Source: Antedon mediterranea | Lineage: Eukaryota; Animalia; Echinodermata | NCBI RefSeq assembly: GCF_964355755.1 | Contig: NC_092672.1 | Coordinates: 7,264,441 to 7,328,440 of the forward strand | DNA length: 64,000 nucleotides | Direction: 5' to 3' | Shown here: positions 15,741 through 22,550 of the stretch, piece after piece | How the letters are laid out: the number at the start of each line of letters is the position of its first letter | Position numbering within the stretch: position 1 is the stretch's first letter | The notes under the pieces: generated by a model | What the model saw: the letters and a program-made list of their open reading frames with translations, nothing else | Told to the model about the DNA's origin: nothing | The model's database searches: none | Made by a program: the position numbers and the translations under genes

Positions 15741-18700
15741 TGAGTACATGAGTAGGTTTATTACTAGTGTTAAACACTTATTTTTATTTTTATTTTATTT
15801 TTTATTTAATCGGTATAAAAAGACTCAAAATACAACTCATAGTTGAAATGAAGAGCTTACATATGAAAAAGATAATTCACATAGCCTAAACAAAGTTAAA
15901 CGAAGAAAAAACACATTAAAGCCTAAGAAACAGTAATAATTACTGTATAATTCGTTAAACTTAAAATTACTATAAAAAATGCACAAATTCTTAAATATAC
16001 AATTTTAAAAAATAGAGACTAATATTAATAATCACATTATTTTTAAACACCAATAAAATATATGTAAAATTCATTAAATTAAAAGTACAATAAAAATTGC
16101 ACAAAATTCAAATTCAAAGGATGATATTAATAATTACAAATTCTTATATTATATTTACAAATTTAAAAAATTGAATCTTATAAATCACATTTTTATAGTC
16201 CCATAAGTAGTTAAAAAAAAAAATTTAAAGCATAAAACAACCACTTGACAAAGAGACAATAGAACATACTCTTCGAAATGTCTTTAAAGGTTAATTGTCC
16301 AAATCTATTCATTATTTAAGAGTCCAATAACAGTTGGAATTGTTGATGCAGCAAGTCTTTTAGTCCGACATCGTGGCACATCAAACTTATTAACTTTACG
16401 CAAACACCTTGTCGGCTTTTCTTTTTCAGGGATCCATTCCTTAAAGCGATCCGACTTTAGCAGCCCCTTTCCAAAGTTATAAAGAAGAACCTGACGTCTA
16501 TGCTGCAATGTCTTTAACTTGAGGGTTTCAAGTGATTTTGCGTAACTAACATAGTTTTGATATCCAATAATAAGTTTTACAACACGCTTTTGGATGAATT
16601 CAAGTTGATCACTCTGTTTATTGGTGATCGAGCTATGCCAAAGAGGACTGGCATACTCAAGTAAAGGACGAATGTATGTTATAAAAGTGAAAACCAGATC
16701 ATCCTTTGGGGCTCCAAAACGCTTCAGAATGTATAGCATATATAGACGACGTGATGCCCTGGAAACGACTTCTTTAATCTGCTTGTCCCACTTGAGGTCA
16801 CTTTGCAGATGCACTCCAAGAAGTTTCACACTCTGGGATTCTTCGAGTATAACACCATCCATTTGTAACGGCTCAAATTGGGGAACATTACGCAAAAAAT
16901 GAACACGCATCACTTGAAACTTTACAGGATTTGGTGTTGCATCATTCTCCACACACCAACTGGAAAGAGCATCAAGGTTGCTTTGAATCGAACTATCTTC
17001 AGGTCTCTGTACTGAAATCACCTCGCCAATCGTCAGGTCATCAACAAACTTCCATCTATCAGGTACATTGTTGAGCAAATCATTAACCATGATAGTAAAT
17101 AGGATTGGGCCTAATTTAGTACCCTGAGGCACTCCGCACGAAATTGGTTCTGGCGCTGAGACTGAACCGCCCAACCGCACACACTGATTTCTTTGCGAGA
17201 GGAAGCTACACACCGTTGGAATGATAGAGGGCATGATATTAAGACCAATTAATTTGTCAATCAGAATTGAATGGTTGACCCGGTCAAAGGCTTTACTAAA
17301 GTCTATGGCACAAATAGTACCATACATTCCTGAGCTATCTAATCCTGACAGAAGCCTATTACAGAGTTGAACAAGGTAATGAGTCGGTGATGAACCCTTC
17401 GCATTTCCAAACTGTTGGGAATCCATAAGAGGTCTGAAATCAGTAGCTATCCAATCAGAAAGGAAGCTCTCAAAAATTCTACCAAAAACAGGCGTGATGG
17501 ATATAGGCCTATGTTCATTAGGTGTAGAAGCCTTTGGCTTTTTGGGTACAGGAGTAATGATGGCATTCTTCCAGATAGATGGGAAATTATTATCCTGGAG
17601 GCAACAATTCAATATTTTAGCGAGAGGTTGGGCAAGTTCTAAGGCAAATTCCTTAATTAATCGGAGAGGTATATCACGAGGATGCCTTGATTTATTCACA
17701 TTAATGCCCTTTAATAGTTTAAAAACTTGCCCAGGAAAAATAACAGGGGGCTTAACAGAAGGAAGAAAGGCAGGTAAATTTCGCAAATCTAATGCAGGTA
17801 AAAAAGAACAAATCCTAGCAAAATGTTTGTTGACAACATCTACAACAACATCAGGGTCACAACCAGGTTCAAGAAGTGCAGATTGCGGTTTTGATTTTCC
17901 AGCAATCCTCTGCACTTTCTTGTGCCACTTCTGGGGCTCAATTTTCCTAAGAGAAGATATAGATTCTTTATAGAAGTTTGATTTTGCCAATCTTACTTCA
18001 GAACGAACAAGCCTTCTAAAATGACGGTATCTTGTTTGGTTACCCTTTCGATAAGCACGATGTCTTTTCTCAATCATTTTTTTAATACTTTGATTAAACC
18101 AAGGTTTATCATTGTCTCTGACACGAATAACTACTGAAGGAAAAGACTTTTCGTAGGTTTCCTTAAGCACACTTTCAAATTTGGCAGCTAAATATTCAGA
18201 ACTGTCGTCCTCATAAACTATATCATCCCAGTCAATCCCAGTAATAACTTGGCCAAATGCACGCATGGACGAGTCTTTCAAGGGACGGCGAACTAGCAAC
18301 CTTCTCTTTACCGGTTTCTTTTGAATAAAATTAGGTTTTAAAAGAATGGAGGCATGGTCACTGCGACCCAGGGGAGAGAGTTTTAAAGGGGATTGGTAAA
18401 GATCAGAGATGTTTGTTAACATTTTATCAAGACATGCATCATCGCGAGTGGGAAAATCTACTACTTGTTCTAATGATGTTTGATAAAGTAGGGGGTCAAT
18501 ATCGTAGTCATTAAAGTCACCCATAATAATGAAAGCAGCATTATCCCTTACACTACGAAAATAGTCAATTCTTGAGCACAAGAACTCTGTAAGCTGTTGA
18601 TTCCGATTACAGTTAGGTGGGTAATAGACGACAATAGTGACGATTGAGAAAGAGAGGTTAATTTTTACATCAACGCATAGGCATTCAAGATCAATAGGAC

Positions 18701-19487
18701 ATGCATCATCAACTTCGTAATCATATACTTCATTAATATATAGAACAACACCACCGCCAACGCGATTACTTCTATCATTCCGAATGCATGAGAAACCCTG
18801 AACTGCCGAACACTCAGAAGAAAAATCAGAATGAAACCACGATTCTGTTATACCAGCAATATCAATGTTACTGTTTGCTAAAACTAACTCAAATTCATTC
18901 ATCTTATTGCATAACGAGCGCGCATTACACAGAAAAACACTAGGGTAAATGTTAGACCTACTAAGTTTAGCTTTACAAAAAATTGGAACAAGAATACTAG
19001 GCCCTCTCTCACCATTAATATTAGAATTATCTACTCTTCCTCCGATCTGAACAAGTATTTGCTTCCGCATATTCCGACCAGCACGGCGCCCTCTTTTACG
19101 CTTGAAAGCGGATACATTAGTTCTTGAGAAATTATAATTCAAACCCATAATTATCGGAAAAAAAAAAACAATTCAGAATAAAACAAAGTATCAAAAACAA
19201 AGAGGAATAAGTCAAGAGAAGAAAACCACGAACAGAATATAAAACTTTGATAGAAGAGGCCTTCAACAAAAATTCAAGACAAGCATTGTACAAGTCTGAA
19301 GCTGGTTATCCCCTGTGTGAATAGAGACAATTAGAGGAACCACCAACAATTTAGACAATATTGAAAGACATGAGACATACTATTAATATCTTAACATGTA
19401 CATTACGCTACAGGTATAAAACAATCAGTAAATAAATCATAAAGGGGTCATTTTTTGGAACACAATTGCACTATTAGCAATAATGAA
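15741..19487 (-). mobile_element. Full-length single-ORF non-LTR retrotransposon (CR1/L2-like clade), in NLK intron 4, same orientation as NLK
   Basis: Termini were defined by comparison with the deletion derivative at 22357-22550. It has a 339-bp 5'UTR, a 947-aa ORF and a 564-bp 3'UTR containing two ~110-bp tandem repeats. Confidence 0.7.
16305..19148 (-). CDS. LINE ORF: APE-type endonuclease + reverse transcriptase (FSKAFDRVNH, FVDD) + CR1-type C-terminal domain (LEYASPLWH)
   Basis: Uninterrupted 947-aa ORF. Endonuclease N-terminal motif CNARSLCNKMNEFELVL..ITESW. RT motifs PISITPV, SKAFDRV, FVDD. Confidence 0.85.
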   Translation of the reverse strand: MGLNYNFSRTNVSAFKRKRGRRAGRNMRKQILVQIGGRVDNSNINGERGPSILVPIFCKAKLSRSNIYPSVFLCNARSLCNKMNEFELVLANSNIDIAGITESWFHSDFSSECSAVQGFSCIRNDRSNRVGGGVVLYINEVYDYEVDDACPIDLECLCVDVKINLSFSIVTIVVYYPPNCNRNQQLTEFLCSRIDYFRSVRDNAAFIIMGDFNDYDIDPLLYQTSLEQVVDFPTRDDACLDKMLTNISDLYQSPLKLSPLGRSDHASILLKPNFIQKKPVKRRLLVRRPLKDSSMRAFGQVITGIDWDDIVYEDDSSEYLAAKFESVLKETYEKSFPSVVIRVRDNDKPWFNQSIKKMIEKRHRAYRKGNQTRYRHFRRLVRSEVRLAKSNFYKESISSLRKIEPQKWHKKVQRIAGKSKPQSALLEPGCDPDVVVDVVNKHFARICSFLPALDLRNLPAFLPSVKPPVIFPGQVFKLLKGINVNKSRHPRDIPLRLIKEFALELAQPLAKILNCCLQDNNFPSIWKNAIITPVPKKPKASTPNEHRPISITPVFGRIFESFLSDWIATDFRPLMDSQQFGNAKGSSPTHYLVQLCNRLLSGLDSSGMYGTICAIDFSKAFDRVNHSILIDKLIGLNIMPSIIPTVCSFLSQRNQCVRLGGSVSAPEPISCGVPQGTKLGPILFTIMVNDLLNNVPDRWKFVDDLTIGEVISVQRPEDSSIQSNLDALSSWCVENDATPNPVKFQVMRVHFLRNVPQFEPLQMDGVILEESQSVKLLGVHLQSDLKWDKQIKEVVSRASRRLYMLYILKRFGAPKDDLVFTFITYIRPLLEYASPLWHSSITNKQSDQLEFIQKRVVKLIIGYQNYVSYAKSLETLKLKTLQHRRQVLLYNFGKGLLKSDRFKEWIPEKEKPTRCLRKVNKFDVPRCRTKRLAASTIPTVIGLLNNE

Positions 19488-19866
19488 AATTCTGTTGTTG
19501 TTTTTTTTCTTCACATTATTGATTGTCTCCATCCCCGAAACCTCGACTAAGAAATACCGGAATGGTGTCCGGCGGGGGATAGTTTATTACCATTAGTTAA
19601 GGTCCTATGTAAAGCACCTAGAGGGGTCAGTGATCCATTAGGCGCTATATAAATACTGTTTATTATTATTATTATTATTATAGTATGAAAAAATGTTCCA
19701 AAATGTTGTTTTTTTTTGTGTGTTACTGTTATATAAACAGTATAATATTACTATAGGATCAATAAACTGTTAATACAATGTTAATATAATATAATACAAC
19801 TATAAACATTGAACAAACAAATTAAGCATTTAATAACAAATATTAGAATAATAAAAATGAACAAAC

Positions 19867-19973
19867 CTCGAAGAATTTGGTAGAGGAAGACTTTGACATG
19901 ATCTGAACTAAGTGGCTGAGGTGATACAATAATCTTATGTAAGTCACTCTGGAGCAGTTCTGTAACTACATAT
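19867..19973 (-). CDS. NLK: NLK exon 4: (I)[35 protein letters not shown]
   Basis: Acceptor ttatattatcag, donor gtttgt. Matches [38 protein letters not shown]. Confidence 0.85.
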
Positions 19974-22024: not shown

Positions 22025-22182
22025 GCTCTGTCTACACTATTAAACTAATTTGACAAAAAAGTATCATGTACCCAAAGATGACACTGATACAGTATGTCTA
22101 AATATGGTAGTGATATGACATCATCCATATATGGGCATATCACATTGTTTTGTAACATAAAGTTTGATAGTGTAGACAGAGC
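22025..22182. mobile_element. MITE family A, complete copy
   Basis: Both TIRs are present (gctctgtctacactat.. / ..tttgatagtgtagacagagc). Confidence 0.7.
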
Positions 22183-22356
22183 ATAAGAACTTATAATTCT
22201 ACAAACTTGTCTATTCCAGTACAGTATGACAATATACATGCTGAAAAATGATGGGGATAAAAACAGGGATATGGATAGCAATGCACTTAATATTTTCTTC
22301 AAAACTGGAAGTATGTTCACCTTTACTTCCACCTTAAATCCGTCTTCTTTCACAGA

Positions 22357-22550
22357 ATTTTCATTATTGCTAATAGTGCAATTGTGTTCCAAAAATGACC
22401 CCTTTATGATTTATTTACTGATTGTTTATACCTGTAGCGTAATGTACATGTTAAGATAGTATGTCTCATGTCTTTCAATATTGTCTAAATTGTTGGTGGT
22501 TCCTCTAAGTGTTTAACACTAGTAATAAACCTACTCATGTACTCAAAATT
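22357..22550 (+). mobile_element. Internally deleted derivative of the CR1-like LINE: 154 bp of LINE 5'UTR joined directly to the 40-bp LINE 3' terminus
   Basis: 22357-22510 is the reverse complement of 19321-19487, and 22511-22550 is the reverse complement of 15741-15780. Confidence 0.65.

Follow-up and report, generated by a model that had tools for sequence, protein, structure and literature searches.

A probably complete CR1/L2-group LINE and a 195-bp element sharing both of its ends in NLK introns of the crinoid Antedon mediterranea

Introduction

Two sequences of very different length, 3,756 bp and 195 bp, begin and end alike and lie 2.9 kb apart in introns of NLK in the crinoid Antedon mediterranea, raising the question of how they are related. 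Both are located in a 64-kb window, which is the whole stretch of DNA analyzed here (64,000 nucleotides of contig NC_092672.1, positions 7,264,441 to 7,328,440; coordinates below are those of the window). The longer one is a full-length non-long-terminal-repeat (non-LTR) retrotransposon, or long interspersed nuclear element (LINE), on the minus strand at 15740..19495, and the shorter one is a head-plus-tail element on the plus strand at 22352..22546, delimited by BLAST against the window and base-level alignment. Their opposite orientation, already proposed in a first-pass annotation of this DNA, is borne out. Altogether, the pair is interpreted with good confidence as a complete LINE of the CR1/L2 group and an internally deleted copy from the same family. 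The first-pass annotation had likewise described the short element as a head-and-tail internal-deletion derivative, a view favored by the presence of a 3' module in the outer 38 nt of the shared sequence, but it had overlooked the opposite order of events, in which a LINE is nested in a short repeat.

Structure and coding capacity of the LINE

The limits of the LINE were set by its identity with the 195-bp element in alignments, and its coding part was taken from the list of open reading frames (ORFs). On the minus strand, it comprises a 5' untranslated region (UTR) of 347 nt (19149..19495), in which in-frame stops precede the ATG at 19148, a single ORF of 947 aa (16305..19148), supported by the ORF list, Pfam and alignment with relatives, and a 3' UTR of 565 nt (15740..16304), which runs from the ORF stop to the 3' boundary shared with the short element. 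The 5' terminus starts ACAGAATTTTC, and its first 165 nt (19331-19495) are the head kept in the 195-bp element, as seen in the base-level alignment; the 3' terminus reads ...AATAAACCTACTCATGTACTCAA. An ORF1 was not found, as the LINE contains no other ORF of at least 100 aa and its 5' UTR is closed in three frames. In the CR1/L2 group, an ORF1 upstream of the endonuclease and reverse transcriptase is typical but not universal.

The 3' UTR is organized in several parts, all on the minus strand. Self-alignment detected two degenerate direct repeats (~16063-16194 and ~15944-16041), with direct matches of 44 bp at 86% (offset 118) and of 64 bp at 72% (offset 153). What had been described in this region as two ~110-bp tandem repeats amounts to these two weak matches, and Tandem Repeats Finder reported no tandem repeat in the 3' UTR. 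Further downstream is an irregular A-rich, (AAATAA)n-like tract (15778..15807), whose 3' edge and the 3' deletion breakpoint coincide exactly, followed by a 3' terminal module of 38 nt (15740..15777), which base-level alignment identifies as the tail kept in the 195-bp element. The context of this breakpoint is ...TTAAATAAAAAATAAAATAAAAATAAAAATAA|GTGTTTAAC, with the A-rich tract to the left of the bar; the tract side ends ...AAATAAAAATAA and the outer sequence after the tract is GTGTTTAACACTAGTAATAAACCTACTCATGTACTCAA. Base-level reading of the module shows a hairpin GTGT-TTA-ACAC (15767-15777), a AATAAACC box (15755-15762) and a terminal direct repeat TACTCATG/TACTCAA (15740-15754). Poly(A) is absent from the 3' end. 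The stability of the hairpin equals that of shuffled sequence (z = -0.04), so no structural claim is made for it, and the case rests on motif and position.

The uninterrupted ORF reported in the first pass, combining an apurinic/apyrimidinic endonuclease (APE) and a reverse transcriptase (RT), was recovered in full. The endonuclease (aa ~74-265, ~18354-18929) corresponds to Exo_endo_phos (E 7.6e-6) and the RT (aa 535-781, ~16806-17546) to RVT_1 (E 4.3e-24), both above the Pfam cut-offs and both supported by alignment. The ORF was aligned with seven relatives at 31-42% identity and is collinear with them from the endonuclease through the last residues, keeping every invariant column, which agrees with its earlier description as apparently intact. 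Residues kept include N75, E102, D211, N213, D264 and H265 of the endonuclease, D616 of the RT, the FVDD box and the C-terminal ..IP..LLN end. Alignment with the relatives also delimits a conserved C-terminal domain ending ..STIPTVIGLLNNE; its pattern, '..VPRxR.K....S.IP...LLN', is presumably akin to the C-termini of L2 and CR1 elements.

An N-terminal endonuclease followed by an RT in one ORF, with intact catalytic residues, is the layout of an APE-type LINE, and the lack of poly(A), together with a 3' UTR hairpin followed by a short terminal direct repeat, is that of the CR1/L2 group. Thus, the assignment to CR1/L2-like LINEs holds at the level of 3'-end architecture and refers to the group as a whole (CR1, L2 or another member). 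Judging from its sequence, the LINE is probably complete, retrotransposition-competent and a member of the CR1/L2 group.

The LINE family is young, because a second protein of A. mediterranea, P0001, is identical to the LINE ORF at 913/919 aligned residues. It is annotated as 'uncharacterized protein' and is the only other protein of the family found in the annotated proteome, so that the species carries at least two copies. In P0001, a 1-bp frameshift swaps the last 28 residues. Since this removes the conserved LLN end, the P0001 copy is probably defective, and the gene model probably represents a transposon ORF and not a host gene. The comparison of copies that had been suggested earlier therefore gives an intact ORF in the window and a close but frameshifted one elsewhere, and recent activity of the family, as first proposed, is supported by this second copy.

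The 195-bp element matches both ends of the LINE

The short element is made of a head of 157 nt (22352-22508, plus strand), which equals LINE 19495-19331, and a tail of 38 nt (22509-22546, plus strand), which equals LINE 15777-15740. With BLAST, 22352-22512 matched the reverse complement of 19495-19327 over 169 columns (E 1e-71) and 22506-22549 matched the reverse complement of 15780-15737 (E 3e-16). Both ends are thus collinear and near-identical with the LINE termini and the coding part is gone, the longest open frame of the short element being 35 codons. No substitution separates the two sequences over ~200 nt of head and tail. The four differences are all deletions in the short copy (A6 to A5, T4 to T3, loss of ATATTA, and a gap of 3,553 nt corresponding to LINE 19330-15778), and all fall at homopolymers, short repeats or microhomology. 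A 3-nt TAA microhomology is common to both breakpoints of the large gap; the junction reads CCTCTAAGTGTTTAAC and is spanned by the 30-mer GGTGGTTCCTCTAAGTGTTTAACACTAGTA. At the 3' side, what is kept is precisely the hairpin, AATAAACC and the terminal repeat.

The pairing of head and tail and their fusion, noted in the first pass, are real, but some of the ends were given 4-8 bp away from their positions. Instead of 15741-19487 and 22357-22550, the shared 5' boundary is 19495/22352 and the shared 3' boundary is 15740/22546; and instead of exactly 154 bp plus 40 bp, the head has 157 nt, against 165 nt in the LINE, and the tail has 38 nt plus the TAA. No other match to the head or the tail was detected by BLAST within the window, and blastn-short with eight pieces of the UTRs against it gave chance 10-16-mers only, with no older copies and no truncated LINE fragments. 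Metagenome scans with a 26-mer of the head and a 24-mer of the tail gave 0 matches.

Other identities for the 195-bp element were also considered. In the element, Rfam gave two meaningless sub-threshold hits only, ARAGORN found no tRNA, and terminal inverted repeats (TIRs) were not found, the sole terminal pairing being 11 nt that are 82% complementary. A short interspersed nuclear element (SINE) was rejected for want of a head of RNA polymerase III (Pol III) type (no tRNA, no Rfam family). A miniature inverted-repeat transposable element (MITE) or hAT element was rejected for want of TIRs, and because a CAG start and an 8-bp duplication are unmatched at the other end. The ends are unsuitable for a Helitron, and the conserved NLK exon in between led to the rejection of a composite DNA transposon whose long TIRs would be the two copies. 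Having no Pol III head, tRNA or TIRs, the 195-bp element has no identity beyond the LINE ends.

Two probable insertions with candidate target-site duplications

Target-site duplications (TSDs), which the first-pass annotation had proposed to look for, were found as candidates of 7-8 bp at both elements. The LINE is flanked by ATGTGAA on the minus strand, upstream at 19510..19516 and downstream at 15732..15738. The downstream copy lies 1 nt past the 3' end, and 14 extra nt (GAAAAAAAACAACA, 19496-19509) stand between the upstream one and the shared 5' end. For the 195-bp element, on the plus strand, TTCTTTC(A) at 22345..22351 abuts the 5' end and TTCTTTCA at 22561..22568 follows 14 extra nt after the 3' end (AATTAAGGCATGGG, 22547-22560), which the LINE copy does not have. 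A simulation with 20,000 random placements for each element size produced a match of at least 7 bp in the same geometry in ~1.3% of cases (p ~0.013) per element, and the joint chance is ~2e-4. Because of this low joint chance, the candidate TSDs of both elements are regarded as probably real, with the 14 extra nt as a caveat. No source for the 14-nt extras was found elsewhere in the window; those of the LINE could stem from read-through at the 5' end or from untemplated addition, and those of the 195-bp element from read-through at the 3' end.

The 195-bp element would most likely have been inserted separately, by target-primed reverse transcription with an RT acting in trans, because it has its own candidate TSD and a 14-nt 3' extension unlike the LINE flank. 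Its source was most likely not the neighboring LINE copy, since the 3' extension differs from the 3' flank of that LINE. These features also bear on the idea that the short element is a local product, that is, an inverted partial duplication made together with the LINE locus by twin priming, or a mis-assembly. The proximity (2.9 kb) and inverted orientation of the elements would suit such an event, but the similarity ends sharply at the element ends, the candidate TSDs differ, a conserved NLK exon lies intact between the two elements, and the three small deletions imply that the short element was not copied from the neighboring LINE locus. A local rearrangement or assembly artefact is therefore regarded as highly improbable.

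Deletion or nesting: the 3' end of the LINE clade

Shared ends are expected whether the short element lost the center of a LINE or a LINE entered a copy of the short element. In the latter case, a shorter LINE (19330 to 15778) would have split a second copy of an independent 195-bp repeat; it would begin TTGTCTCTATTCAC, end in an A-rich (AAATAA)n tail and have produced a target duplication of 0-3 bp (TAA). The two orders of events make different predictions about the 3' end, which would lie in the outer 38 nt after a deletion and at the A-rich tract after nesting. The 3' ends of relatives were read from metagenome, Logan and genome contigs. The nine contigs of P0013 have in common a 135-nt 3' UTR ending ...GGAAATAAAGTC(ATT)2-5, beyond which the flanks differ, and therefore the clade ends in a short microsatellite. 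The P0004 contig carries a hairpin GGCC-GTAA-GGCC, then AATAAATACC, then AAATGAAAT repeats; both P0013 and P0004 have AATAAA, then 3-4 nt, then the microsatellite. The 3' end of P0011 is ...ACTGTAATAAACCATTAATT(ATT)n and the 3' region of P0003 is ...AACAATAAACCAGTCTACTACATGTG.

The AATAAACC box was spotted first in the outer 38 nt of the window elements, which contain ...ACTAGTAATAAACCTACTCATGTACTCAA, and P0005, P0012 and P0007 were then fetched as a prospective check. P0005 ends ...TTTAATAAACCAATAATAATAATAA, coincident with the contig end; P0012 ends ...GTAATAAACCATTAAT and P0007 ends ...TTAATAAACCATTCTATAACCATTCTATG, each followed by flank, and the P0007 end includes the CR1-type octamer ATTCTATG. 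Altogether, five contigs from four independent families (P0003, P0005, P0007 and the pair P0011/P0012) have AATAAACC followed by a short terminal repeat at the end of the 3' UTR. In these marine metagenome and Logan contigs, the box lies directly before the terminal repeat (L012 4146-4234, L014 3700-3747, L015 3299-3330, L016 3450-3500 and L011 3630-3680), which is ATTAAT/(ATT)n, (AAT)n or ATTCTATAACCATTCTATG; elsewhere it is rare, the count per relative contig being one or two. In the window, AATAAACC then TACTCATGTACTCAA is found within the outer 38 nt. The box has 4 occurrences on 128 kb of strands, two of which are those of the LINE and the 195-bp element, and its chance of falling in a given 40-nt piece is ~0.0005-0.001. 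Because the layout of AATAAACC plus terminal repeat sits in the outer 38 nt and not at the A-rich tract, these 38 nt are read from the motif and its position as the 3' end of a LINE from the relatives' clade. The box itself may serve this clade as a conserved signal for recognition or polyadenylation.

For nesting, this means that the clade-typical module would be in the supposed host sequence and missing from the supposed LINE end, so that a host repeat bearing the 3' module of the clade and a young, intact LINE devoid of it would both be needed. The supposed host repeat would also have no Pol III head, tRNA or TIRs, and the window contains none of its older or diverged copies, in contrast to the repeat that is truly abundant there. 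Moreover, the young LINE would have to have landed within just 195 bp, and in the orientation of the repeat, with the other member of this low-copy repeat just 2.9 kb away, and the candidate 7-8-bp duplication present at both outer junctions is absent at the inner one.

Several observations weigh against deletion and in favor of nesting or of caution. The 3' breakpoint is the exact end of the (AAATAA)n tract, as expected for a LINE tail in a microsatellite-like sequence that abuts interrupted host DNA, and the uninterrupted 195-bp element, read as an empty site, is a perfect one that leaves a duplication of 0-3 bp. Microsatellite ends are found in related families, and the (GAAAT)n tail of P0004 resembles the A-rich tract (p 0.003 in Smith-Waterman comparison with the inner candidate end, both sequences being low-complexity; P0013 gave p 0.03-0.06). 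Short interspersed repeats are also abundant in the window. Against the outer 40 nt, Smith-Waterman comparison gave p 0.01 for P0011 and 0.19 for P0003, which is not significant when unconstrained; given this weak similarity, the argument rests on one 8-nt motif and its position. The candidate TSDs need 14 unexplained extra nt, which lie 5' of the LINE and 3' of the short element. Finally, the DNA copies compared are the two inside the window, and two copies alone cannot settle deletion versus nesting, because a microhomology deletion and a 3-bp target duplication look alike. The contradictory, weak Smith-Waterman scans were replaced by the position-specific AATAAACC test on the three further relatives, and a MAFFT alignment of the 3' ends was discarded because it wrongly paired the A-rich tract with the AATAAACC box. 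On balance, nesting is considered unlikely, and the 195-bp element would have come from the LINE's family by internal deletion, a direction of change that we infer chiefly from the position of the 3' module.

Other features were seen in the relatives. P0011 and P0012 have an upstream ORF (ORF1). In the P0013 family (Tara Oceans, L001-L009), copies start at ATTCTCATGGGAGCGCC, ~107 nt before the ATG, and in L001, L003, L005 and L007 the ATTCTCATG(GGAGCGCC) start is immediately preceded by additional partial copies of itself, a sequence arrangement that suggests 5' terminal repeats or template-jump products. Downstream of the P0004 ORF, L010 13321-14670 (JARPNA010000316.1) holds a ~200-bp MITE-like palindromic insert with perfect arms (TATAATCTGGCACATAATAG...CTATTATGTGCCAGATTATA), and a hAT-like transposase gene comes next along at 14669-16747. 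As a second AATAAACC is located 1,236 nt after the stop of the P0004 ORF in L010, the true 3' end of the P0004 LINE may be further downstream than assumed.

Formation of the short element: one event or a family

In stringent-type LINEs, a 3' UTR hairpin and a short terminal repeat are thought to form the recognition site of the RT (PMC4316615). If so, the RT could act in trans on an RNA in which the 38-nt module is kept, and the presumed internal promoter and the 5' UTR would come from the 165-nt head. The internal deletion may have arisen by a template jump of the RT on entering the A/U-rich tract, at the first UAA met, or by a microhomology-mediated deletion of DNA, which would fit equally well. 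Template slippage or jumping is consistent with the data because every deletion falls at a repeat or a microhomology and no base is substituted.

Whether such an element was ever a source of new copies is a further question. It could be a one-off, a single LINE copy that was dead on arrival or deleted later and never gave rise to others, formed by an RT template jump in one event or by a post-insertion deletion between TAA microhomologies. The single copy in 64 kb is in keeping with this, as are the four slippage or microhomology deletions without substitutions, which resemble the outcome of one error-prone event, and the annotated proteome, with just one other LINE protein of the family. However, chance would seldom place a rare one-off just 2.9 kb away from a full-length copy unless insertions of the family are dense, and the window has no truncated LINE fragments; this low chance favors a family. 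Moreover, the two parts required for transcription and RT recognition are exactly those that the deletion spared, and the 14-nt 3' extension suggests that the source was a locus different from the neighboring LINE. Membership of an amplified, RIME-like family is tentatively put at just short of an even chance. That the element is a master or member of a promoter-bearing, non-autonomous family actively amplifying in this crinoid is possible, though the balance tips against it, and a one-off origin, while quite conceivable, is on the whole doubted.

Genomic context in NLK

The exons of NLK were located by tblastn with a human NLK sequence. They are on the minus strand at 60-97% identity (30313-30182, ~25903-25800, 19972-19865, 15447-15358, 14175-13948, and on to ~9600), and G+C content of the window is 32%. 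The intron holding the LINE, which has the same sense as NLK, runs between the exons at 19972-19865 and 15447-15358; the 195-bp element lies in the preceding intron, antisense to NLK. The intronic location and orientation of the LINE are as described in the first pass; the numbering as intron 4 assumes the human exon structure. The exon between the two elements (19865..19972, minus strand) has 108 nt, encodes part of the kinase domain and is 97% identical to the human sequence.

The two copies of the head, 19331-19495 (-) and 22352-22508 (+), form a near-perfect inverted pair of ~160 nt around this exon, at 2,380 nt upstream and 370 nt downstream of it in the transcript. Inverted repeats flanking an exon are a geometry known to favor back-splicing and RNA editing. 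It is a matter of speculation that the inverted heads pair in the pre-mRNA and promote back-splicing (yielding circular RNA), exon skipping or RNA editing. The LINE carries several AATAAA signals in sense orientation to NLK, and, equally speculatively, a sense LINE with such signals together with the inverted pair could affect NLK transcripts.

Other repeats are present in the window. An older interspersed repeat of ~100-160 bp, with at least 12 copies at 75-88% identity, is spread through the NLK introns (3477-3583, 11323-11467, 12045-12138, 12664-12794, 20594-20665, 22021-22189, 24938-25088, 34199-34341, 35510-35639, 47047-47122, 56046-56177 and 59302-59376), and one of its copies is 163 bp upstream of the 195-bp element. 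A perfect tandem duplication of 1,298 bp (34216-35513 = 35514-36811) contains ~180-bp satellite units, which have an inverted, palindromic arrangement at 36746-37249 (region 36323-37266); the 34216-37266 block may be genuine satellite DNA or may reflect collapse or expansion in the assembly. Tandem arrays consist of ~53-bp units at 25585-25797, just downstream of an NLK exon, ~123-bp units at 51736-52199 and ~100-bp units at 61667-61866, and a G19 homopolymer is found at 20680-20698.

Significance and comparison with known systems

The LINE and its 195-bp partner are an ordinary transposon pair of a known kind; they reveal no new principle and do not change the understanding of LINEs and deletion derivatives. 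If the proposed relationship is true, A. mediterranea carries a currently or very recently active LINE of CR1/L2 type. Moreover, a natural derivative fixes the ends of this LINE with single-base precision, a help in annotating crinoid repeats, and the module of AATAAACC plus terminal repeat, found in several marine-invertebrate relatives, is a candidate RT recognition element. If the amplifying family is also true, a deuterostome would have an ingi/RIME-type pair in the CR1/L2 group, and the minimal cis needs for CR1-type retrotransposition would be a 165-nt head and a 38-nt tail made of the hairpin, AATAAACC and the terminal repeat.

Within the LINEs, the closest likeness is to the CR1/L2 group (chicken repeat 1, vertebrate L2, UnaL2), which have an APE and RT ORF, a conserved C-terminal domain and no poly(A), with a hairpin and a short terminal repeat in the 3' UTR; the relative P0007 ends in the CR1 octamer. 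In contrast to typical CR1/L2 elements, the Antedon LINE has no ORF1, and its terminal repeat is directly preceded by the AATAAACC box. The 195-bp element can be compared with LINE-partnered SINEs (UnaL2/UnaSINE1, L2/MIR, CR1-tailed reptile SINEs), in that its 3' end is common with a stringent-type LINE whose RT could be borrowed. True SINEs have a head with a Pol III promoter derived from tRNA, 5S or 7SL, whereas the head of the 195-bp element is the LINE's own 5' UTR.

As a combination of an autonomous single-ORF LINE and a short non-coding partner with both of its ends, the pair is like ingi/RIME of Trypanosoma brucei and L1Tc/NARTc of T. cruzi. RIME corresponds to ingi without its central 4.7 kb, and there is an old ambiguity as to whether it is a deletion derivative or ingi is a LINE inserted into a short element (PMC2323293). 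The 195-bp element has the same ambiguity and, like RIME, no tRNA, 5S or 7SL head. The systems differ in that ingi belongs to the ingi clade and has an A-rich tail, whereas the LINE described here has the hairpin and short terminal repeat of the CR1/L2 group; the two retained parts of RIME are similar in size (~250 + 250 nt), whereas those found here are asymmetric (165 + 38 nt); and RIME is as abundant as ingi, whereas the 195-bp element is seen as a single copy in 64 kb. Altogether, compared by sequence and structure, the Antedon pair appears to resemble ingi/RIME in a CR1/L2-group element of an echinoderm, and its short member would not be a SINE in the strict sense.

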